Sequence record: PZ357121.2
Source of the DNA: a phage
Strand: one strand, 5' to 3'
Length of the DNA stretch: 64,000 nt
The notes under the pieces were generated by a model. It worked only from the letters and a program-made list of their open reading frames with translations. It was not told the origin of the DNA and made no database searches. The position numbers and the translations under genes were made by a program. Shown piece after piece: positions 17,046 through 64,000 of the stretch; position 1 is the first letter of the stretch, and every line of letters begins with the position of its first letter.

Positions 17046-17074
17046 AAGTACCTCTTGGCTCAATTCATAGGTCT

Positions 17075-17110
17075 ATTATATCATAATATTTAGAGACCTA
17101 TCTTAAAGCA
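17075..17110 (-). promoter_or_regulatory. candidate promoter for gene 55 (extended -10 TGnTATAAT; TGCTTTA MotA-box-like upstream)
   Basis: Minus strand reads CGTGCTTTAAGATAGGTCTCTAAATATTATGATATAATAG about 30 nt upstream of ATG. Confidence 0.3.
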
Positions 17111-17117
17111 CGAGATA

Positions 17118-17611: not shown

Positions 17612-17988
17612 TTTGCCGCCTTAACAATTTTCAGGTCAACGAATTTTTTCTTACGTTGATTTTTCATACGACGGATAGTCTTTTCAGAGATTTCATGTTT
17701 CTGATAAGCTTTAGATTCAACACCAAATGCAGCAACGTCAAATTCAGAAAGAATATATTGTACTAGAATTTCACGAATAGAATTACGTCCAATTTTCTGG
17801 TCGTGTTTTTGCATGATTTCATAAAGACGGAATTCCCACGCATCAAGAACTTGAGGAGTAACAATATTGCCAGATTCCAGAAGAGCAACAACTTTATCGA
17901 AAGCGAAAGAATTAACTACGTTTTTGATTTTAGTAGACATATTATTTTCCTCGGTTATTTTATTATCCAACGAGAGAATTATACTCAT
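17608..17988 (-). CDS. hypothetical protein
   Basis: 126 aa ORF. Confidence 0.6.
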   Translation of the reverse strand: MSIILSLDNKITEENNMSTKIKNVVNSFAFDKVVALLESGNIVTPQVLDAWEFRLYEIMQKHDQKIGRNSIREILVQYILSEFDVAAFGVESKAYQKHEISEKTIRRMKNQRKKKFVDLKIVKAAK

Positions 17989-18006
17989 CTCTCAAGAGTT
18001 TGTATA

Positions 18007-18246
18007 CTATTTTTTAAGCATGAAAAGTAAGTAATTTGTATCACGTGGAGTAATATCAACACCCATATCAAAGATGCCTTTATAGATTGGGTATTTGTTT
18101 TCGGTTGTATCGAAGCTGAAACTATTTCCATCACAACTAACAGTAATAGCATCTGTTAAAATGTCATACTCAATCCTAACAATTGAATCCCCAATTTTAA
18201 CGTCGAGGTGTTTTTTGAATTTGATAAAATCTAATTCTTGGGCCAT
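18007..18246 (-). CDS. hypothetical protein
   Basis: 79 aa ORF. Confidence 0.55.
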   Translation of the reverse strand: MAQELDFIKFKKHLDVKIGDSIVRIEYDILTDAITVSCDGNSFSFDTTENKYPIYKGIFDMGVDITPRDTNYLLFMLKK

Positions 18247-18309
18247 GATATTTTCCTCATTTTAAGACGATAGGAAGATAATAACATGTCTTCCTATCGT
18301 TGTACATTA

Positions 18310-19198: not shown

Positions 19199-19377
19199 GA
19201 CTTAATTTCCTTCGCAATTGAACAGAAGATACCACGGTCACAAAGCATTTCACCAATTTCTGGATATTTGATTGAACGGTACCAAACATCCAGGTTTGAA
19301 ACTTTGGTTATCTGTACTGCATTACCGTTGACAGAATAGTACTGGTCAACCTTAATTTCTTTATCTTCAATTGTCAT
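19195..19377 (-). CDS. small hypothetical protein
   Basis: 60 aa from ATG 19377 (MTIEDKEIKVDQYY...), SD GAGGAAAA; early promoter GTTTAC..TAAGAT upstream; longer ORF-track form is a non-ATG extension. Confidence 0.45.
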   Translation of the reverse strand: MTIEDKEIKVDQYYSVNGNAVQITKVSNLDVWYRSIKYPEIGEMLCDRGIFCSIAKEIKS

Positions 19378-19526
19378 TTTATTTTCCTCTATAGTAGATG
19401 GTTTAATCTTAACACATTTATTGAGGATGTAAACTGTTTTATGAAAATATTTTTTGATTTGAGAGGGGCACAAGGAGATAGTGAAGTGAAGATTCCAATG
19501 GATTATATTAGAAATGAGATAAAGAA

Positions 19527-20478: not shown

Positions 20479-20949
20479 TTAATCATGTTTCCACACCCCA
20501 TCGGTATTTGACCAAAGTCGCTGATTATCTGATCCTCGCCACAGCTTTTTAGTCGGAAGATTTTTCTCATACTTCCCATCAATAATAACATCAACATATT
20601 TAAGCATTTCTAGTTGTTTAATATCTTCAAACTTATATCCTGTCCACAACCAAATGCTTTTATTGGGATAAAGATTTTTTACTGTTTGAGCAATGCAATG
20701 AATAACATCTCGGTTATCAGGATAGAGAGGGTCACCTCCGGTTATAGTTAATCCTTCTATATAATCATTATTCAAACATTCAATTAATTGTTCTAGTGTT
20801 TCACCAGTGAATGGAACACCATTTCTAGCATTCCATGTTGATTTATTATAACACCCTTCGCATTTATGCAAACAACCTGTAACGAAAAGAACGACCCTGC
20901 ATCCAGGACCATTCACAAAATCGCAAGGATAAAATCTATCATAATTCAT
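20479..20949 (-). CDS. nrdG: anaerobic ribonucleotide reductase activating protein NrdG (radical SAM)
   Basis: 156 aa; CxxxCxxC motif CLHKCEGC; directly downstream of nrdD. Confidence 0.9.
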   Translation of the reverse strand: MNYDRFYPCDFVNGPGCRVVLFVTGCLHKCEGCYNKSTWNARNGVPFTGETLEQLIECLNNDYIEGLTITGGDPLYPDNRDVIHCIAQTVKNLYPNKSIWLWTGYKFEDIKQLEMLKYVDVIIDGKYEKNLPTKKLWRGSDNQRLWSNTDGVWKHD

Positions 20950-22237
20950 TGGTGTTTAACCCTATGCATGATTTCTTTATTTTTACCGAGATTAAATCCG
21001 CGTTCGTTCGGATTTCCCAAATAACCACATGTTCTTCTTATTGTGTTCATCTTTTTAGGATCAGTTTCTCCACAAACTGAACAAACAAATCCGTTTTCAG
21101 TAGGAGTCATTTCATGGGTACTTCCGCATGTAAAACATTTATCTACTGGCATATTAACACCAAAATAATCTAAATGTTGTGCAGCATAATCCCATACGGC
21201 CTCAAGACCTTTTAGGTTATTTTTCATATCAGGAAGTTCAACATAAGAAATGTGACCGCCGGTCGCTATGAAATGATATGGCGCTTCACGAGAAATCTTT
21301 TCAAACGGAGTAATATTTTCTTCTACTGAAACGTGGAAACTGTTAGTGTACCAGCCTTTATCGGTAACATCCTTTACACTTCCATATTTTTCTGTATCGA
21401 GTTTACAGAAGCGATAACAAAGGTTTTCAGCAGGAGTCGAATATAAACTAAAAGCAAAACCGGTTCTTTCAGTCCACTGCTTAAGATGAGCATTCATTTT
21501 AGTTAAAATTTCTTGTCCAATATCACGACCGACAAGAATATTCAATTCGTGAATACCAATGTATCCTAAGGACACTGAACTTCTACCGTTTTTAAATAAC
21601 TCAATTATATCGTCATCAGGTTTAAGACGAACCCCGAATGCACCTTCTTGGTAAAGAATAGGAGCAACAGTCGCTTTAACACCCTTTAAAGAACTAATTC
21701 TACACATCAAGGCTTCAAAACACAGATCCATTCGTTCATTAAACAACTCGATAAATTTCTGTTCATTGAACTGTGTTCCAATATAAGAATCTAATGCGAT
21801 GCGAGGAAGATTCAGCGTTACAACACCGAGATTATTACGTCCATCAAGAATTTCATTACCAGTCGAATCTTTCCATACGCTCAAGAAACTACGGCAACCC
21901 ATTGGAGAAACTGGAACTGAAGAACCGGTAATAGCTTTATTATTCTTAACCGAAATAATGTCAGGATACATTCTTTTGCTTGCGCATTCTAACGCAAGTT
22001 GTTTAATATCATAGTTCGGATCATCTTTATAAAGATTAACACCTTCTTCAACAAACATAACAAGTTTAGGAAAAATAGGAGTTATTCCATCACGACCAAG
22101 ACCTTTAATGCGGTTTTTAAGAATTGCCTTCTGAATAATTCGTTCAGTCCAGTCAATTCCCGTACCAAATGTAATTGTCACAAAAGGCGTTTGTCCATTA
22201 GAGCTGAAAAGTGTATTTACTTCATCATTATATTCAG
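20946..22237 (-). CDS. nrdD: anaerobic ribonucleoside-triphosphate reductase NrdD, exon 2 (5' boundary inferred)
   Basis: Glycyl-radical motif RRTCGYLG, C-terminal Zn site CFTCG..CSVCG; joins exon 1 to give about 607 aa; junction chosen by alignment to E. coli NrdD (DAFQ..EY..VNTL). Confidence 0.8.
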
Positions 22238-23276
22238 CATGAGTCGCAAATTCATGCCCGTTTATATGAAACAACAAAATTTGGATAGTCCATAGATATG
22301 CAACGTTCTTTTATAGTGCTAGGATGAAAATTTAGCGCTTTAGCTGCTTCTATATAAGACGTATACTTAATACCGTCAACAACCACATATTCAGGAACTT
22401 TATGAATAGTAGTCTTAATACTCAAAACAAGAGGATGAGTTTCGACTTCACTTTCAGTGCAATTTAAATATTCCGCTGCTTTTTTAAAACTTCTAAAAGT
22501 TTTATTTTTAAGCTTTATCGATACTTGTTTTTTACTTTTTCGACTATTGATATTATTTTGCACATGTTCCTTAGATCTTCCGTTTTTAGCATAATATTCA
22601 GCTACAGAAGATTTTATATTGTTTTTATGAGATTCGGATAACACTTTACCCTTATGAGCATCTCTTAATTTTTGAATATGTTCTTCAGTATCCGGATGCT
22701 TATAAAACTTTTTACCGCCTATGGATTTATTTAAACATTTTTTGCTATAAAAATATTTACGTATGACCTCTTCTTCATGTTTTAATGCATCTTTATAACT
22801 ATCAAATGTTTTTAAAATTATCCATTTAGTAGGTGTATCAGTTTTTAAGCGTTCATTTATATACTTAGATGACGTTGTGTAAGTTTTCCAGTTTGTGGGC
22901 TTGTTTTTAATTGTTCTAAATTTTTTATAACCGATATAAATGTCACCATTAGAAAACTTAACTAAGTATGTAAATGCGTCTTTATCTTTTATTTTAGTAC
23001 AACGTCTTTTTATCCATTTCATTGTTTCACCTCGTATTCATAAGATAATCTTATTTATACAAGATGACTGCTGCATGTCGCCATGCAGATTAGACTATAT
23101 CTTCATCTTTCGATGCCGGCCGTTTCGAATAGCATTAGCTTCTATTCTACACCGCTACATTCATCACGGTTAGTCGTTAGGCATTTAGTTCAAAAGAACA
23201 TTTAGCACGGGATTGTCTACTAGAGAGGTTCCCCGTTTAGACCGGTTTTACATGAGCCTGAATTAAATTAACTCAT
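22238..23276 (-). mobile_element. group I self-splicing intron in nrdD (boundaries inferred, about 1039 nt)
   Basis: Minus strand carries the T4-intron core CTAAACGGGGAACCTCTCTAGTAGACAATCCCGTGCTAAAT just after the exon-1 end; proposed exon 1 ends in U, intron ends in G. Confidence 0.7.
22252..23022 (-). CDS. intron-encoded GIY-YIG homing endonuclease
   Basis: 256 aa; GIY-YIG core FTYLVKFSNGDIYIGYKK, NUMOD3-like SESHKNNIKSS, C-terminal HTH; sits 3' of the intron core. Confidence 0.8.
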   Translation of the reverse strand: MKWIKRRCTKIKDKDAFTYLVKFSNGDIYIGYKKFRTIKNKPTNWKTYTTSSKYINERLKTDTPTKWIILKTFDSYKDALKHEEEVIRKYFYSKKCLNKSIGGKKFYKHPDTEEHIQKLRDAHKGKVLSESHKNNIKSSVAEYYAKNGRSKEHVQNNINSRKSKKQVSIKLKNKTFRSFKKAAEYLNCTESEVETHPLVLSIKTTIHKVPEYVVVDGIKYTSYIEAAKALNFHPSTIKERCISMDYPNFVVSYKRA

Positions 23277-23808
23277 ACGCCTGGAATGCATCGTATACGT
23301 CTTTTTCTGTTTTAGATTGGGCATAATTCAACGCATCAGCGATTTGCCATTTTTCTGCATCCTCAATATGTTTTGCATAGGTGCGTTTAACATAAGGAGA
23401 AAGAACTTTATCGACATTCGCAAATGTAGTTCCACCATACTGATGCGAAGCAACTTGTGCAGTAATTTGTGCCATAATTGCAGTAGCAACACCAATAGAT
23501 TTAGGCGTTTCAATTTGAGCATTGCCGAGCTTAAATCCGTTTTCAAGCATTCCTTTTAAATCTACTAAACAGCAATTAGTAAAAGGCAATGATATACTGT
23601 AATCTAAATCATGAAAATGAATTAATCCAACATTATGGGCATTTACAATATGACTTGGAAGAATACGACAAGCGATATGTTTAGAAACAATACCGGCCAT
23701 TAAATCTCTTTTTGTTGGAAAGACGCGAGAATCTTTGTTGGCGTTTTCTGTATTTAATTCTTTATCTTTATTTGAAATAAAATTTAAAACATCTTTTTCT
23801 AAAGACAT
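23277..23808 (-). CDS. nrdD: anaerobic ribonucleoside-triphosphate reductase NrdD, exon 1
   Basis: ENANKDSRVFPTKRDLMAGIV...AQVASHQYGGTT aligns with E. coli NrdD after its ATP-cone; ORF-track stop at 23263 lies in the intron. Confidence 0.8.
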
Positions 23809-28444: not shown

Positions 28445-28472
28445 AATATTTTCCTCTCGTTAAGATAGAAAG

Positions 28473-28501
28473 ATTATACTCCAACCGTCCTTGGTTGTAA
28501 A
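28473..28501 (-). promoter_or_regulatory. sigma70-type early promoter (TTTACA, 17 nt, TATAAT)
   Basis: Minus strand reads GTTTACAACCAAGGACGGTTGGAGTATAAT about 30 nt upstream of ATG 28444. Confidence 0.55.
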
Positions 28502-28506
28502 CTGAT

Positions 28507-29439: not shown

Positions 29440-29465
29440 TTTATATTCCTCATGTTGAAAAATTT

Positions 29466-29494
29466 ATTATACTCCAACCATCCTTGGTTGTACA
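29466..29494 (-). promoter_or_regulatory. sigma70-type early promoter sharing its spacer with 28473..28501
   Basis: Minus strand reads TGTACAACCAAGGATGGTTGGAGTATAAT; spacer differs by 1 nt from the neighbouring promoter. Confidence 0.5.
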
Positions 29495-30490: not shown

Positions 30491-30525
30491 AACTATTTCC
30501 TCAGATTGAATTGGAACTCAAAACC

Positions 30526-30551
30526 ATTATAACCCGTCCTTGGGTAAAGCG
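30526..30551 (-). promoter_or_regulatory. candidate MotA-dependent middle promoter
   Basis: Minus strand reads CGCTTTA then 13 nt (CCCAAGGACGGGT) then TATAAT; shares the CCAAGGACGG element with the two early promoters. Confidence 0.4.
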
Positions 30552-30552
30552 T

Positions 30553-31080: not shown

Positions 31081-31138
31081 GTTTTACCTCCAGTAGTTGA
31101 TAGGTCTATAATAACATAACCATAGACCTTGTAAACAA

Positions 31139-35157: not shown

Positions 35158-35283
35158 TTTACCATACTCGTTTCAATAAGATTCACTATGCCATTTACCA
35201 TGTTATAAGTAAACATCGGATAATTGTATTGTACTACAACATAAGAGATAAGCAAAAGTTTCATTTTGTTCTCCGTTTGTTTT

Positions 35284-35322
35284 GATAGGACTACTATAAC
35301 ATAGTCCTATCAAGATGTAAAC
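35284..35322 (-). promoter_or_regulatory. early promoter with 28-bp perfect palindrome (PeSL-type cassette)
   Basis: GATAGGACTA-CTATAACA-TAGTCCTATC followed by tgtaaac (GTTTACA on minus strand); identical palindrome at 53660 and near-identical at 45274 and 46568. Confidence 0.55.
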
Positions 35323-35558: not shown

Positions 35559-35787
35559 ACATTTGCAATTCGGTGTGGGCTTCAGCCATCTTTTTCATAG
35601 CTCTGTTAATGTCGATGTCTCCATCTTCGCAACCATGAGCATTTTCCCAATCAGATACCGCATTAGCGTACTCTTCAATCAAAAACATTAACTTTGAAAT
35701 CTTTTCTTTACGCGTCATAATGTTCTCCTCTAGTAAGTAAGGACTACTATAACACAACCTGAGGAGAAGTAAACTGATAGATGCCAA
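35539..35787 (-). CDS. hypothetical protein (rI.-1 position)
   Basis: 82 aa ORF downstream of rI. Confidence 0.5.
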   Translation of the reverse strand: MASISLLLLRLCYSSPYLLEENIMTRKEKISKLMFLIEEYANAVSDWENAHGCEDGDIDINRAMKKMAEAHTELQMYVNEIM

Positions 35788-35790
35788 AAA

Positions 35791-35812
35791 GCCCCAACCA
35801 TAAGGAAGGGGC
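35791..35812 (-). terminator. rho-independent terminator after rI (minus strand)
   Basis: GCCCCAACC..GGAAGGGGC hairpin followed on minus strand by TTTTTGGC; same stem sequence as terminator at 50539. Confidence 0.55.
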
Positions 35813-35819
35813 TAGTAAA

Positions 35820-39551: not shown

Positions 39552-39558
39552 TTTGATT

Positions 39559-39608
39559 TCTCCTCTAGTTGACAGGTCTATAGTAACACAACTAGAGGAG
39601 AAGTAAAC
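39559..39608 (-). promoter_or_regulatory. early promoter (GTTTAC..TACTAT) inside a 13-bp-arm inverted repeat whose downstream arm carries the regB SD
   Basis: TCTCCTCTAGTTG ... CAACTAGAGGAGA; on the minus strand the proximal arm contains GAGGAG 8 nt before ATG 39551. Confidence 0.5.
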
Positions 39609-42466: not shown

Positions 42467-42524
42467 AATTTCCTCCAAGTAGTTGATGAATGTATAGTAT
42501 CAAAGTCCTTGGAGGAAGTAAACA

Positions 42525-44947: not shown

Positions 44948-45253
44948 TTATTTTCCTCGACATTCTTTAATGAAATTTTCTAGATTGGTAGATTCAATAG
45001 CTTTTTTACGAGCTTCTGCGTGTTCTTCTTCAGACAATTTACATTTATAATTGACCCAGACATTATGGTCGAAACTAGTCGTGGCATATAATAACAATGC
45101 TCCAACGAATAGCAAAAACGGCGATAAGAATACAAAACCAGGAACACCATCCATATCGTAAGCCTTTTGTAATACTGCAACAGAAAGAGCTGCGTAAAAA
45201 GGTGATGCAAATATTGTTAAAAGACCAATTCGGTTGGTTTCGCCTAATTTCAT
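44948..45253 (-). CDS. membrane protein (C-terminal FIKECR junction motif)
   Basis: 101 aa; two TM segments; ends ...ENFIKECRGK; PeSL promoter upstream. Confidence 0.55.
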   Translation of the reverse strand: MKLGETNRIGLLTIFASPFYAALSVAVLQKAYDMDGVPGFVFLSPFLLFVGALLLYATTSFDHNVWVNYKCKLSEEEHAEARKKAIESTNLENFIKECRGK

Positions 45254-45273
45254 AATATTCTCCTCATGTTTTA

Positions 45274-45311
45274 ATAGGACTACTATAACATAGTCCTATC
45301 ATGTTGTAAAC
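45274..45311 (-). promoter_or_regulatory. early promoter with palindrome (PeSL-type cassette)
   Basis: ATAGGACTA-CTATAACA-TAGTCCTAT then tgtaaac. Confidence 0.55.
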
Positions 45312-46308: not shown

Positions 46309-46548
46309 TTAAATTTCACGACATGCGATATCATATTCATCCCAGAGGTCATCGTGTGAAGCCTCTACCAATGGAACGATTGTACCATTTATGTCTTCAT
46401 TATAAGGGCAAATTGTACAGTGCGCATCTTCGAATCGAATGCCTTTGTGTTCAGATTTTTTATAACGCATATCGAATATCTTTGCAAACTTTTCACGAGT
46501 AATGGTTTTAGCAACCACTTCGGTTCCAACACTTTCGTAATAAATCAT
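46309..46548 (-). CDS. hypothetical protein
   Basis: 79 aa ORF; PeSL promoter upstream. Confidence 0.55.
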   Translation of the reverse strand: MIYYESVGTEVVAKTITREKFAKIFDMRYKKSEHKGIRFEDAHCTICPYNEDINGTIVPLVEASHDDLWDEYDIACREI

Positions 46549-46567
46549 TGTGGACTCCGTTTAATTT

Positions 46568-46606
46568 GATAGGACTACTATAACATAGCCCTATCTTGTT
46601 GTAAAC
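46568..46606 (-). promoter_or_regulatory. early promoter with palindrome (PeSL-type cassette, one mismatch)
   Basis: GATAGGACTA-CTATAACA-TAGCCCTATC then tgtaaac. Confidence 0.5.
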
Positions 46607-49342: not shown

Positions 49343-49412
49343 ATTATTACCTTTCAATTGGTGGTTTATTATCCAATGAGAGCATTATACTCTGCTCTCA
49401 AGAGTTTGTAAA

Positions 49413-49640
49413 TTATTTTTTAATCAAATTGACATAAAACTCGGCGTCTTCCGGGTGCATGCCTTCGCAGTATTCTTCAACCATGAACTTCTTAACAGCT
49501 TCATAAGGACCACTCAGATTAAGCTCAGTTGTCCAGAACTTGGAATCTTGGACTGAATCGATACGAACTTCAGGGTGGCGGTTGCGAATAACTTCTTCGG
49601 TGTATTCATAATCAACGACATCAATACTAACTGTAGCCAT
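49413..49640 (-). CDS. hypothetical acidic protein
   Basis: 75 aa ORF; early promoter with inverted repeat upstream. Confidence 0.55.
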   Translation of the reverse strand: MATVSIDVVDYEYTEEVIRNRHPEVRIDSVQDSKFWTTELNLSGPYEAVKKFMVEEYCEGMHPEDAEFYVNLIKK

Positions 49641-50013: not shown

Positions 50014-50070
50014 AATATTCTCCTCATTAATAGGGCTCATAATATCTCAATCATAAGCCCGTGTAAACAA

Positions 50071-50346: not shown

Positions 50347-50538
50347 GTTTTTTCTGTATTGGTAGTTGATAGTTGTATAGTACCACGGAAGAACAGGGAT
50401 GTAAACAGTTTTGTGAAAAAAAGTTTTTGTGGAATTCTAGGGCAGGGAGAGGAAATTAAAAAGTAGGATAATATATTATAAAGGGTATAAACTAAATGAT
50501 GTGCCTAGAGAGGTCCAGAAAGGCCTAGATACCAAAAA

Positions 50539-50560
50539 GCCCCAACCTTTCGGAAGGGGC
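50539..50560 (-). terminator. rho-independent terminator closing the RNA-gene cluster (minus strand)
   Basis: GCCCCAACC-TTTC-GGAAGGGGC hairpin followed on minus strand by TTTTTGGT. Confidence 0.55.
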
Positions 50561-50600
50561 TATACCTTGTCGGGGTTCCACCTGCAAGGCAAGTGTTTGT

Positions 50601-53453: not shown

Positions 53454-53652
53454 CTTTAGAAATTTTATCCATAACGATAGCGATTAAGCCGATTAGAAAT
53501 GCTACTACCAATGAGATAGAATTTTCGGTTGTTGTCAGTAGTCCGCAAATGAATCCTACAAACATCGAAAAACTAAAAGCCATTGAAGCAATTACTACAG
53601 CAACATTACGAATCAGTTCAGCGCGTTTCATTTTATTTCTCCATTTACTCAT
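53446..53652 (-). CDS. small membrane protein
   Basis: 68 aa; two hydrophobic segments; PeSL promoter upstream. Confidence 0.55.
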   Translation of the reverse strand: MSKWRNKMKRAELIRNVAVVIASMAFSFSMFVGFICGLLTTTENSISLVVAFLIGLIAIVMDKISKGE

Positions 53653-53659
53653 TTGTTTT

Positions 53660-53698
53660 GATAGGACTACTATAACATAGTCCTATCATCATGTAAAC
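53660..53698 (-). promoter_or_regulatory. early promoter with 28-bp perfect palindrome (PeSL-type cassette)
   Basis: GATAGGACTA-CTATAACA-TAGTCCTATC then tgtaaac; identical to the 35284 copy. Confidence 0.55.
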
Positions 53699-53964: not shown

Positions 53965-54041
53965 TTTATTTCCTTGAGGCTGTTTATTTGATAGGATGAT
54001 AGTAACACACCATCATCCTTATGTAAACTGTTTTGTGAAAA

Positions 54042-56206: not shown

Positions 56207-57028
56207 TTAAGATTTCCAAACAGTATTCGCAGAGAAACGTTTTCCTTTTGACATAAACTGCTGAGTAGGTAACATGATTATGTTAGCCCAGTCTTTAGGA
56301 GCTATTTCTGTTATTGTTCCTCTAATGTGGCCTGGCAGGTATGCTTTAATCATTTTGTCAGCACCTTGAAATCCTTTCACCTTGCTCCAGTCTATCTTAA
56401 ACTTTGTGTTATTAGTAATAGTAGTTGTGCTAGCATATTGCTTCAGCAATTCTTCAAGAAACTGTTGTCGTGCTTTAGGTGGGATATAGTGCAAGTTTAA
56501 CCCATACATCAAATTATGTTTACCTAATCCTAAATAAATAATCAAAGGATATCGGTCCCAGTATGGCAAAGTATCTTTATGTTTAGCATCATACACGTAA
56601 GTATAAATTTTGCCTGGCGTAGGCTTGACTACTTTATGACCTTTTACACTTTTCTTAATTGTTTCAACAAACCACTTAGATGATTTGTTGTTTACTGCTG
56701 CGCCTTCATTTCTAATCTTTTCTCGTATTGAACTGCGAAACGAGTTTATCATCAGAAGTTGACGTTCTTGCTTATTGAGTTTATTTTTAGGTTTAGATTC
56801 AAGCGTTTCAATTTTCTGTGCAGTCTTAATAGATGATGCATATCTAGACATTGCAGATGTAAACGACGAGTATTTTATTCCTTTTGATTCTGCAAATGCT
56901 TTTGCAGTGATTCCTTTCTCTTTAGCTTTCTTGTATTCTAATCCTATCTCAATCCATTTTCTTTCATTCATAGACTGAGCAATCTTAGTGGCTTGTACGC
57001 CTTCAGATATAATTTGGAATATGCTCAT
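56207..57028 (-). CDS. 2: DNA end-protector protein gp2 (by position and size)
   Basis: 273 aa basic protein; between gene 4 and gene 3. Confidence 0.7.
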
Positions 57029-57675
57029 TCAACTTTCCTCATTTTACAATTATCACCATGCCAACGTTTATAAGGCGCAGGTTTACATTCTATACCGCAG
57101 TATTGGCATATCTTATTATGAGTATTTAAGTATCCTAATCTCATGTTTTCCTTTTCTTCAGGAGTTCTATTTCGTCCTGTAAGAGTATTTTTTATTTTGT
57201 CTCTAATCTCTTTGGGCATTATCCTGCCTCGGCCTGCTTTACCTATTTTAGCTTTATGCTCTTCGGATAATTTCTTACCCTTCTTAGCTAAACTCATTTT
57301 CTTTTTAGATTCTTCGGAAATAGGACCTAATTTTCTACCTCTGGATGAATCGCCTATTCTTTTTCGCACATCAATAGAACGGCCTCGTCCTCCCTTTCCT
57401 CCTAGGTCTATATTATATGTATCTTCTCTATCCACAAAAGATTGATCAACTAATTCTGCTTCCTTTTGGAAAGCCATTTCTTCATTTAGTAATTCGTCAC
57501 CGGTATCATACACATATAATACTTCTTTTACAAAATTATCTAATCCGTATTTAGCATGGGCTTTTAAGATAATTTTACCTGTTCCTTTATAAGAATCATC
57601 CGGATTATTAGTTTTATGAACACCTATATAAATTTTATTATTTACGATGTTAGTTATTTTATATACAGTATACAT
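57025..57675 (-). CDS. GIY-YIG homing endonuclease with C-terminal zinc finger (inserted between genes 4 and 2)
   Basis: 216 aa; GIY-YIG core [16 protein letters not shown]; C-terminal [22 protein letters not shown] matches the finger module of the HNH protein at 11600. Confidence 0.8.
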
Positions 57676-57676
57676 A

Positions 57677-58126
57677 TCATCCCTTATATCCTAAACGACG
57701 TAAACCGTCTTCTGTGAGAATTCTGAATTTTATATTTCTCTTTTCTGCGACAGCAGAAGCAGCTTTCCATTTATCACAGTTCACAGACCACACGTAGATC
57801 TCGTTCATATAACGTTTCTTTGCTGCGGTCGTAAGATTTGCAGGCTTAATAGGTGGCTGAGTTTCTTTCTTTGGTTTTATTTCTACAAAGAACTCTTGAC
57901 CTGATGCATCTTTCATCCATATGTCCATATAGTATCGACGTTTCTTACCTTCGGCATTACAAAAATATGGAATTACTGCTGTTTCACTACCCCATGCAAT
58001 AATTTCTGGATTTTTATCTAACCATTCGAAAAAGAATTTTTCCCAGTTTGAACGATACGTTATTTTGGTATGGTCTCCACGGTATTTTTTTAAATTTTTT
58101 GGGACCCATTTACCAGAGTAGGCCAT
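57677..58126 (-). CDS. 4: head completion protein gp4
   Basis: 149 aa from ATG 58126 (MAYSGKWVPKNLKKYRGD...), SD GGAGGA; late promoter TATAAATA on minus strand at 58160..58153. Confidence 0.8.
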   Translation of the reverse strand: MAYSGKWVPKNLKKYRGDHTKITYRSNWEKFFFEWLDKNPEIIAWGSETAVIPYFCNAEGKKRRYYMDIWMKDASGQEFFVEIKPKKETQPPIKPANLTTAAKKRYMNEIYVWSVNCDKWKAASAVAEKRNIKFRILTEDGLRRLGYKG

Positions 58127-62194: not shown

Positions 62195-64000
62195 ATGGCA
62201 AACACTCCTGTAAATTATCAATTAGCCCGAACAGCGAATGCTATTCCCGAGATTTTTATCGGGGGCACATTTGCCGAAATCAAACAGAATATTATCGAAT
62301 GGCTTAATGGGCAGAATGAATTTCTTGATTATGATTTTGAAGGTTCGCGTTTAAACGTATTGTGTGACCTTTTAGCATATAACACTCTTTACATCCAACA
62401 GTTCAGTAATAGTGCAGTGTATGAAAGTTTTATGCGTACTGCAAACTTGCGTAGTTCTGTTGTACAAGCGGCTCAAGATAACGGATATCTGCCTTCATCT
62501 AAATCAGCAGCACAAACAGAAATTATGCTCACATGTACGGATGCATTAAATAGAAACTATATCACCATTCCACGCGGCACTCGTTTCTTAGCATACGCTA
62601 AAGATACTTCTGTTAACCCGTATAACTTTGTTTCTACTGAAGATGTCATTGTAGTTAAAGACAAAAATAACCAATATTTTCCACGTCTTCGATTAGCTCA
62701 AGGACGTATTGTTCGCACTGAATTAACATTTGATAAATTAAAACCTATCATTATTCGTGATAAGAATATTGACCGTAATTTGGTTAAGTTGTATGTTGAC
62801 GGAGCAGAATGGATTAACTGGACTCGTAAGTCGATGGTTCACGCTGGTTCTACGTCAACAATCTATTATATGCGTGAAACAGTTGATGGGAACACCGAAT
62901 TTTATTTTGGTGAAGGCGAAATCTCTATTAACACATCAGAAGGTGCGTTAACATCTAACTATATTGGTGGCCTTAAACCTGTTCAGGGTTCTAAAATCGT
63001 AATTGAGTATATTTCTACTAATGGTGCAGATGCTAACGGAGCTGTAGGATTTTCTTATGCTGATACATTAGCTAATATCACGGTAATCGATATTAACGAG
63101 AACCCTAGCAATAACCCAGACTTTGTTGGGGCAGACGGTGGTGGTGACCCTGAAGATATTGAACGTATCCGCGAATTAGGCACAATTAAACGCGAAACTC
63201 AACAACGTTGTGTAACCGCTTCCGACTATGACACATTCGTCTCTGAGCGGTTTGGTTCTATTATTCAAGCGGTTCAAACATTCACAGATTCATCTAAACC
63301 AGGGTACGCATATATTGCTGCTAAGCCTAAATCTGGATTGTATTTGACTTCTGTCCAACGTGATGATATCAAAAACTATTTGAATGATTATAACTTAGGG
63401 ACTATTACACCTGTTGTTATTTCGCCTGATTATTTGTTTATCAAAATGAATATCAAAGTTACATACGCGTTGAATAAACTCCAAGAATCAGAACAATATC
63501 TTGAAGGGCAAATTATTAATAAAATTGACCGATATTATATTGAAGATGTAGAAATTTTTAACTCATCGTTTGCAAAATCTAAAATGCTAACTTATGTCGA
63601 TGATGCAGATATTTCTATTATTGGTTCTTCTGCTACTATTCAAATGGTTCGCGAAGTACAAAACTTCTATAAAACGCCTGAGGCCGGTATTAAATACAAT
63701 AATCAGATTAAAGATAGATCGATGGAATCTAATATATTCTCGTTTGATTCGCACAGACCTAATCCAGAAAATGCAAACGAAACTATTAAATACGGTGTTC
63801 GCATAGTATCTTCTGACCGTAATGACCGTGGCATAGGTCAAGTTATTATTGGTCCATTTGCAGAAGGTGATGTTGTTGAAAACGAAAATATACAACCTTA
63901 TACAGGTAATGATTTTAATAAACTTACTGTTACTGACGGACGAAACAAATACTATTCAATTGGTGAAGTGAATTATCCTGCCGATTCGATTTATTGGAAC
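62195..64000 (+). CDS. 6: baseplate wedge protein gp6 (N-terminal about 600 codons; continues beyond window end)
   Basis: Starts MANTPVNYQLARTANAIPEIFIGGTFAEIKQNIIEWLNGQNEFLDYDFEG as in T4 gp6; open to the window edge. Confidence 0.88.
   Translation, partial: MANTPVNYQLARTANAIPEIFIGGTFAEIKQNIIEWLNGQNEFLDYDFEGSRLNVLCDLLAYNTLYIQQFSNSAVYESFMRTANLRSSVVQAAQDNGYLPSSKSAAQTEIMLTCTDALNRNYITIPRGTRFLAYAKDTSVNPYNFVSTEDVIVVKDKNNQYFPRLRLAQGRIVRTELTFDKLKPIIIRDKNIDRNLVKLYVDGAEWINWTRKSMVHAGSTSTIYYMRETVDGNTEFYFGEGEISINTSEGALTSNYIGGLKPVQGSKIVIEYISTNGADANGAVGFSYADTLANITVIDINENPSNNPDFVGADGGGDPEDIERIRELGTIKRETQQRCVTASDYDTFVSERFGSIIQAVQTFTDSSKPGYAYIAAKPKSGLYLTSVQRDDIKNYLNDYNLGTITPVVISPDYLFIKMNIKVTYALNKLQESEQYLEGQIINKIDRYYIEDVEIFNSSFAKSKMLTYVDDADISIIGSSATIQMVREVQNFYKTPEAGIKYNNQIKDRSMESNIFSFDSHRPNPENANETIKYGVRIVSSDRNDRGIGQVIIGPFAEGDVVENENIQPYTGNDFNKLTVTDGRNKYYSIGEVNYPADSIYWN

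Follow-up and report, generated by a model that had tools for sequence, protein, structure and literature searches.

The 64,000-nucleotide (nt) stretch of phage DNA analysed here (record PZ357121.2; hereafter, the window) contains, from about 16.5 to 58 kilobases (kb), a long tract in which all genes lie on the minus strand and which corresponds to the 55-nrdC-tk-regB-denV-e-tRNA-ipI-57 accessory region of phage T4. The window region is 95–97% identical to RB69/JS09/ATK47-like phages (genus Mosigvirus), even the best of which aligns to it in about a dozen pieces only; identity to T4 is 70–85%. Our subject is a palindromic element, apparently an early promoter, that occurs four times between 35 and 54 kb, in the nrdC-to-ipI accessory region (12 alignment pieces against the best relative), together with the wider set of promoter cassettes around it. 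A DNA pattern search of the window returned the 28-base-pair (bp) palindrome GATAGGACTACTATAACATAGTCCTATC, with arms GATAGGACTA and TAGTCCTATC around CTATAACA, twice without mismatch (copies 1 and 4 in Table 1) and twice with one mismatch (copies 2 and 3); allowing up to three mismatches, the pattern had no match in 100 dinucleotide-preserving shuffles of the window. An independent repeat search also arrived at these four sites, which head its list of direct-repeat families in the window, in register over 64 nt at 80–86% identity. An initial annotation of the sequence had reported identical palindromes at 35284 and 53660, as we find them, and variants with one or two changes at 46568 and 45274; the first of these variant starts is correct, the second lies at 45273, and each variant carries a single change.

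On the minus (coding) strand every copy reads (T)AGTTTACA-N4-GATAGGACTA-TGTTATAG-TAGTCCTATC-AAA...GGAG-N6-ATG. The GTTTACA that the initial annotation had placed beside the palindrome stands 4 nt upstream of it in all four copies, and a promoter consensus scan called each of them as TTTACA-17 nt-TATAGT preceded by TG. The early consensus of T4 and RB69 has GTTTAC at −36 to −31 and, in RB69, a C-rich segment at −3 to −1 (Nolan et al. 2006; 57 RB69 early promoters were predicted in that study, which does not mention palindromes); the PST/T4 early consensus is TTTACW-N17-TAYWAT (Comeau et al. 2014, PMC4122927). On this basis the four copies are predicted to be T4-type early promoters with an extended −10 held in a hairpin loop. 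Assuming the usual 7-nt distance between the −10 (TATAGT) and the transcription start, the spacer contains the 5′ arm, the loop holds the TG and most of the −10, and the 3′ arm occupies approximately −7 to +3. Thus, of the earlier proposal that one arm lies in the promoter spacer and the other in the initial transcribed region, the first half holds for this family and the second does not, the 3′ arm being mostly in the discriminator; in the regB cassette considered below, the 3′ arm does lie within the leader and includes the Shine-Dalgarno (SD) sequence. Each copy directly follows the stop codon of the preceding open reading frame (ORF) and precedes by 55–70 nt an ATG with an SD; the cassette spacers, from the TAA or TAG of one ORF to the ATG of the next, measure 57–70 nt and contain a GGAG SD. 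The four ORFs downstream, of 36–101 codons, fall into phage families that have no known function. In all four copies the stop codon of the preceding ORF directly adjoins the −35 (TAGTTTACA), the UP position there being coding sequence; other cassettes (19427, 50399, 54021) have a common TTTCACAAAAC-type block upstream.

The pairing of the two arms is under selection. Evidence for this comes in part from relatives of the family, which were taken from GenBank phage records: 210 such records contain the palindrome family, in up to five places per genome, and the exact 28-bp palindrome was not found in T4 between 40 and 82 kb. Metagenomic sequences added little, a scan of IMG/VR with the 14-mer core CTACTATAACATAG yielding mostly chance matches among the matches listed; because a more specific promoter-plus-core pattern matched only 5 stretches, IMG/VR appears to hold few relatives. 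In the window itself, the outer pair of copy 2 and pair 7/22 of copy 3 are G·U on the sense strand; DCP548 and two IMG/VR contigs have the latter as G-C, a full compensation. Across the relatives pair 2/27 occurs as A-T, G·U, A·C or G-C, and pair 7/22 as A-T, G·U or G-C; double changes from A-T to G-C are found in JS09, ATK47, DCP548 and two metagenomic contigs. When 19 family sequences were aligned, 97.4% of cells paired and the observed covariation was reached by 2 of 500 shuffles. Copies within one genome also differ symmetrically: GATAGG..CCTATC is found beside GGTAGG..CCTACC in JS09, and GGGCTA..TAGCCC in DCP548.

These symmetric differences bear on the possibility that the palindrome is an operator, bound over the −10 of a four-promoter regulon by a dimeric, sequence-specific DNA-binding regulator. 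The sequence is common to four promoters, and inverted half-sites of 10 bp, 8 bp apart and centred on the −10, have typical operator geometry. Yet, because copies within a single genome (JS09, DCP548) differ symmetrically with pairing preserved, what is conserved is structure rather than a protein half-site. Moreover, equally good palindromes of unrelated sequence lie at other promoters and the complementarity is specific to each promoter. On these grounds the operator reading was rejected, and we regard it as very improbable.

Listing every intergenic spacer on the coding strand yielded about 20 promoter cassettes of three classes. In the first, arms unrelated to those of the four-copy family flank the −10 (the −10-flanking cassettes and the ipI-like cassette in Table 1, and a MotA-box middle promoter at 17067–17101); in the second, a spacer arm pairs with the SD (the SD-sequestering cassettes in Table 1, and 19385–19427); in the third, a small hairpin lies inside the spacer. 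The cassettes upstream of ipI and regB, which the initial annotation had singled out as having different arms, are among them. An Rfam search gave no family at the cassettes, its only hits being three tRNAs. We compared the folding of 29 independent cassettes, 15 from the window and 14 from T4, with that of 800 same-strand control segments. Mean fold energy was −12.1 kcal/mol for the cassettes and −6.5 kcal/mol for the controls (p=6e-7), with z below −2 in 17 of the 29. In 15/29 cassettes the promoter's spacer had a perfect complement of 7 bp or more in the segment downstream of that promoter; among mismatched promoter pairs, 52/812 had one (permutation p<2e-4). Moreover, at orthologous promoters of T4 and the window (mobD.2, ipI, trna.4, regB) the hairpin is kept and the sequence is not, T4 having unrelated arms at the same place in the first three; in the homologous region of T4, early promoters have 14–15-bp stems at mobD.2 and ipIII and SD-pairing stems at regB, denV and nrdC.8. 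Pairing devoid of function, with the four copies being recent duplications or gene conversions of one accidentally palindromic promoter, would fit the identity of the copies over 64 nt and the spread of cassettes by recombination. However, this reading sits badly with the folding-energy excess and the permutation result, with unrelated arms that still pair at the orthologous T4 promoters, and with the compensatory substitutions in relatives; it was rejected on these grounds, and we find it hardly credible.

Table 1. Promoter cassettes of the window (coordinates in record PZ357121.2 window numbering; the hairpin column gives the 28-bp palindrome for the family copies and the outer limits of the pairing arms for the other cassettes)
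Feature	Position	Strand	Hairpin	Elements
Family copy 1	35262..35322	-	35284-35311	-35 GTTTACA 35316-35322; palindrome, extending to 12-bp arms TTGATAGGACTA / TAGTCCTATCAA; leader, GGAG, ATG of 36-codon ORF (phrog_3515)
Family copy 2	45251..45311	-	45273-45300	-35 45305-45311; palindrome; 101-codon ORF (RB69ORF133c-like, phrog_9798) downstream
Family copy 3	46546..46606	-	46568-46595	-35 46600-46606; palindrome; 79-codon ORF (phrog_3723) downstream
Family copy 4	53629..53698	-	53660-53687	-35 53692-53698; palindrome; trna.4-like 61-codon ORF (phrog_1692) downstream
Cassette upstream of ipI-like gene	53965..54041	-	53993-54019	GTTTAC 54023-54028; arms AGGATGAT (54012-54019) and ATCATCCT (53993-54000) around -10
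regB cassette, SD-sequestering	39552..39608	-	39558-39602	spacer arm TTCTCCTCTAGTTG (39589-39602) pairs with CAACTAGAGGAGAA (39558-39571, contains GGAG)
denV cassette, SD-sequestering	42467..42523	-	42470-42517	TTCCTCCAAG (42508-42517) pairs with CTTGGAGGAA (42470-42479)
SD-sequestering cassette	35719..35774	-	35723-35768	TTCTCCTC (35761-35768) pairs with GAGGAGAA (35723-35730); GC-rich hairpin and T-run (35778-35814) immediately upstream
-10-flanking cassette	50014..50068	-	50033-50060	arms GGGCTTAT (50053-50060) and ATGAGCCC (50033-50040); one U.G pair, sense strand
-10-flanking cassette	49343..49412	-	49377-49400	arms TGAGAGCA (49393-49400) and TGCTCTCA (49377-49384); paralogous copy 17959-18020 (89% identity)
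-10-flanking cassette upstream of nrdC.8-like gene	31081..31136	-	31102-31129	arms AGGTCTAT (31122-31129) and ATAGACCT (31102-31109)
-10-flanking cassette, TGTACA-type -35	18247..18309	-	18268-18299	arms CGATAGGAAGA (18289-18299) and TCTTCCTATCG (18268-18278)

In RNA read through from upstream, the 28-bp family forms a hairpin of 12–13 bp (centroid −18.6 kcal/mol, z −4.5), whereas the leader of a transcript begun at the cassette's own promoter is unstructured (−0.6 kcal/mol). With its predicted start 3′ of the 5′ arm, the own-promoter transcript has no partner for the 3′ arm, and the hairpin is open to read-through RNA (or DNA) alone. The reading we favor, and hold with moderate confidence, is that each cassette combines an early promoter, a boundary hairpin on read-through RNA and a site for short-homology recombination. 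The host sigma-70 polymerase would use GTTTAC as −35 and, across a 17-nt spacer, the TGn-extended TATAGT, starting at about the A of ...CCTATC and launching an unstructured, A-rich leader with a GGAG SD for a small accessory ORF. Those segments of the promoter that are free to vary, namely the spacer and the discriminator/+1 region, might have evolved mutual complementarity. RNA from upstream promoters would then fold into a hairpin of 10–12 bp (about −18 kcal/mol) just past the upstream stop codon, and own-promoter RNA, which is without the 5′ arm, would stay open. One could envision such a hairpin marking and insulating the boundary between neighboring units of transcription and translation, probably by capping the upstream message on its 3′ side (once RegB or an RNase has cut at the downstream GGAG, for instance) and by making the ribosome site that follows less used in read-through RNA.

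A stable hairpin just after a stop codon is also what intrinsic terminators have, and one could suppose that the cassettes are classical Rho-independent terminators of upstream transcription. This was the behavior of GC-rich promoter early stem-loops (PeSLs) of phage phi1, where the PeSL211/210 stem-loop and rrnB T1 lowered lacZ expression to a similar extent (Arbiol et al. 2010, PMC2839356). Intrinsic terminators, however, have a GC-rich stem and a U-tract, and the family stems are AT-rich and run into AAAACAAA on the sense strand, into AAGATG on the other, with no U-tract on either side; a consensus scan made no terminator-like call at any of the four copies. The phi1 activity is therefore not simply transferable to the window cassettes, and the terminator reading, which was rejected, seems to us distinctly unlikely. 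The window does contain canonical hairpins of this kind. At 35778–35814 and 50526–50562 (minus strand, 89% identity), a GC-rich hairpin and T-run (GCCCC...GGGGCTTTTTGG) lies immediately upstream of a GTTTAC early promoter. These are genuine terminator-promoter composites, unlike the AT-rich palindromes that flank the −10, and because such terminators precede other GTTTAC promoters, this genome seems to use a different element when termination is needed.

In the regB/denV class the damping of read-through RNA would be explicit, the spacer arm pairing with the SD itself. The SD lies within the helix at regB, at denV and in the cassette at 35723–35768. Single-sequence folds, on which the regB result rests, place the SD of regB opposite a spacer arm in Mosigvirus, Tequatrovirus, Gelderlandvirus, Dhakavirus and Winklervirus, with arms that differ in sequence from genus to genus and covary; an RNAalifold consensus of the five cassettes was uninformative, MAFFT having set the arms out of register. 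At the regB promoter of a Gaprivervirus it is the −10 region that pairs with the SD/AUG, and in a Marfavirus a stem flanks the −10. The T4 regB cassette lies at 62740–62797 in record coordinates. In Klebsiella phage vB_Kpn_F48 the regB promoter region (about 190–260) carries a tandem duplication of some 50 nt (AAAAGTACTAGTTTACAAGTGTGTAGGAGTATGGTAT...) that includes the −35 and the 5′ stem arm. RegB itself cleaves the regB SD. Judging by the predicted folds, regB read-through RNA would be both untranslatable and, at the SD, RegB-resistant. In the reviews consulted we found no mention of the regB SD pairing with the spacer arm of its own early promoter.

These properties inspire analogies with the T4 genes e, soc, 49 and I-TevI, whose long transcripts fold and mask the ribosome site and whose promoter-proximal transcripts do not (Uzan & Miller 2010, PMC3014915). 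There, as in the regB, denV and 35774 cassettes, an internal promoter starts transcription downstream of the 5′ strand of the helix. The T4 promoters in question are late ones, however, and the arrangement delays expression, whereas the internal promoter of the window cassettes is early and both transcript classes are early. Furthermore, the T4 stems mask the ribosome site and the stem of the 28-bp family does not contain the SD.

The cassettes coincide with junctions at which genomes have gained, lost or exchanged genes. In four relatives a 66-codon ORF (phrog_6200, unknown function) lies between an AGGTCT...AGACCT promoter core and a GATAGGACTA core; in JS09 (stretch 19243–19443) its neighbors are the ORF134c and ORF133c homologues. 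The window is without this ORF, and the junction falls in the −35 of copy 2, at 45304–45308. The same ORF with two matching cores is present in Tequatrovirus SH7 (stretch 1290–1490), between nrdC.11 and nrdC.10, where comparison with T4 puts the left junction exactly after GTTTACA and the right one just before the GGAG SD. This is a clean case of an ORF that travels with the cassettes on either side of it, its loci differing between the two genera. The internal-protein (IP) slot is bounded upstream by the ipI-like cassette and downstream by copy 4. Relatives differ in whether it contains, between cassettes, one IP gene or two, and in which ones, and promoter cores and leaders have recombined there. 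For ATK47, RefSeq records that RB69 IP genes have a "43 bp direct repeat" on their flanks. A cassette can also be decoupled from its gene, as in Dhakavirus, where the regB cassette is almost identical to the T4 denV cassette. Recombination of T4-type phages at short homologies is documented (among others by Arbiol et al. 2010, PMC2839356). We propose that the motifs recurring at gene junctions (GTTTACA, the promoter core, CTATCAA/SD) would serve the phage recombination system as short homologies, and that ORFs might in this way be gained, lost and swapped from cassette to cassette without losing the signals for their expression. Of the 36 breakpoint clusters counted in comparison with four relatives, 11 fall within 20 nt of a cassette, with 2.3 expected at random (p<5e-4). 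The view of the initial annotation that the cassettes are mobile modules agrees with these findings insofar as insertions, deletions and replacements between relatives do join at cassettes.

Several observations weigh against the combined reading that we favor. Breakpoints prefer gene junctions in general, and among these the excess at cassettes is not significant (11/27 versus 29%, p=0.13). In roughly one in five early-promoter cassettes, those at 50406 and 32611 among them, no convincing hairpin is seen. In the 28-bp family the stem ends 7–16 nt upstream of GGAG and neither SD nor AUG is paired in the helix; since the SD lies outside the stem, translational masking is not evident there. Promoter activity and start site in the four copies are deduced from the consensus only, and a literature search for a genome-wide 5′/3′-end data set of T4 or RB69 found none. 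The role of the hairpin at the RNA level, its effect and the mechanism of recombination we infer from sequence. Finally, action at the RNA level finds little echo in strand asymmetry: perfect palindromes fold equally well on both strands, the difference in fold energy between sense and antisense is no larger than background (p=0.64), internal transition mismatches across cassettes show a weak sense bias (10 sense G·U versus 4 A·C, p=0.18), and single-step intermediates within the family number 4 sense G·U and 3 sense A·C.

The lack of a significant strand bias is what one would expect of a structure acting in DNA, such as a cruciform or single-stranded hairpin that is a target for recombination (e.g. 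by endonuclease VII) or a supercoil-sensitive promoter switch, possibly tied to the shut-off of early promoters. The coincidence of cassettes with recombination junctions would suit this idea, the shut-off mechanism has been stated not to be understood (Uzan & Miller 2010, PMC3014915), and a DNA-binding protein targeting the stem-loop was speculated upon by Arbiol et al. (PMC2839356). On the other hand, the mapped junctions coincide with the −35 hexamer and the +1/SD motifs rather than with the center of the palindrome, and what bias the internal mismatches have leans toward sense-strand G·U. The hairpin flanks the −10, sits in the spacer or pairs the spacer with the SD, and such variability is hard to square with a fixed role in the geometry of polymerase and promoter; the SD-pairing class, with regB in five genera, makes sense only in RNA. 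The variable position and the SD-pairing class favor RNA over DNA as the level of action, and a DNA-level role seems to us unlikely.

The likeness to PeSLs that the initial annotation had noticed is supported: the four copies and about 15 further intergenic units show the published PeSL architecture, that is, an early promoter motif, a stem-loop overlapping the promoter, an intergenic position and a location in hyperplastic regions and at the boundaries of insertions and deletions. The terminator component of the PeSL definition finds no support in the sequence of the four copies. In T-even phages such stem-loops were first noticed at the IP loci (Repoila et al. 1994, cited in PMC2839356). Arbiol et al. 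(2010, PMC2839356) called the AT-rich promoter stem-loops of T-even phages analogs, not homologs, of PeSLs, and Comeau et al. (2014, PMC4122927) extended the PeSLs to PST/T4. Like the window cassettes, the PeSLs of phi1 and RB49 consist of an early promoter and a stem-loop in short spacers between small ORFs of hyperplastic regions and are tied to places where close relatives have inserted, deleted or replaced ORFs; recombination between neighboring cassettes and excised mini-circles are among their features, and among the positions recorded for their stem-loops are "between -35 and -10" and "overlapping the -10", the overlap being the layout of the window family (PMC2839356). They differ in having a near-perfect sigma-70 TTGACA, G/C-rich stems (GGGG...CCCC) and terminator activity, in contrast to the GTTTAC, the AT-rich stems and the missing U-tract of the window. 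The PST/T4 PeSLs (PMC4122927) and the T-even IP elements (Repoila et al. 1994) use the TTTACW-N17-TAYWAT promoter and have AGNA-loop-TCNT stems, AGGA...TCCT in the window being of the same kind; like the window cassettes, they flank IP genes and other variable ORFs. Those descriptions concern Tequatrovirus and IP loci, whereas the window offers a Mosigvirus and a four-copy family, and a legend in Comeau et al. (PMC4122927) has the stems "just upstream" of the promoter, whereas those of the window straddle the −10 or pair with the SD. To judge from sequence features, the family is a Mosigvirus four-copy case of the known class of PeSLs and T-even promoter stem-loops. What the present analysis adds to that class is quantitative evidence of selection, the confinement of the hairpin to read-through RNA, and an anti-SD arm in an early-promoter spacer (regB, across genera).

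It is tempting to speculate that T-even early promoters are built so that the origin of a transcript decides its fate, an ORF being read efficiently only from own-promoter RNA and the spacer encoding the 5′ arm of a hairpin whose 3′ arm is at +1 or beyond. Read-through RNA would be either capped by the hairpin (−10-flanking class) or masked at the SD and RegB site (regB/denV class). We put this forward tentatively and think it rather less than probable. If true, it would extend the promoter-in-hairpin logic of e, soc, 49 and I-TevI from a few late promoters to a large share of the early ones, and would explain why pairing is conserved despite the turnover of arm sequences. In a bolder variant, the same palindromes may take part in the unexplained shut-off of early promoters. 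The regB/denV class makes the function of the hairpin testable. More generally, the cassettes can be viewed as the punctuation of the T4-family accessory genome: each small, often anti-defence, ORF is predicted to receive a strong early promoter of its own, and short homologies are supplied for the gain, loss and exchange of ORFs, even between genera. Once the cassettes are recognized, promoters, module boundaries and the true start codons of genes can be annotated better; they also help predict sites of rearrangement in phage genomes, which is relevant to phage engineering and therapy.

Other promoters of the window deserve mention. A second, two-copy cassette family (17959–18020 and 49365–49426; 62 nt, 89% identity) has stems that differ in a pair-preserving manner, GAGAGCA/TGCTCTC versus GAGAGA/TCTCTC, one copy having a TATACA-type −35. 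The small in-spacer hairpins of the third class belong to three neighboring nrdC.x-type promoters (spacers 28445–28506, 29440–29494 and 30491–30552, minus strand), which have in common a hairpin between −35 and −10 that reads CAACC-AAGGAC-GGTTG or ACCC-AAGGAC-GGGT; they are a further PeSL subclass. At 17046–17117 (minus strand), the spacer and downstream region of a middle-type promoter with a MotA box (GTGCTTTAA) form an 8-bp stem, ATAGGTCT/AGACCTAT, which resembles the "PmSL" described for Vibrio phage nt-1.

Two further observations concern other genes of the window. The alignment of the nrdD homologue (20929–23748) with T4 nrdD is unbroken and takes in the group I intron region of the latter; inside the homologue a 256-codon ORF (22252–23022) lies between non-coding stretches of 193 and 240 nt; Rfam gave no intron hit at gathering score in 20929–23748. 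Presumably the non-coding flanks belong to an intron and the ORF is its I-TevII-like gene. A 216-codon ORF on the minus strand (57025–57675), situated between the homologues of genes 2 and 4, matches homing endonucleases (phrog_314, E 2e-50). It is missing from all four close relatives compared, whose alignments jump from 57028 to 57705, and looks like a free-standing homing-endonuclease insertion specific to the PZ357121.2 phage.

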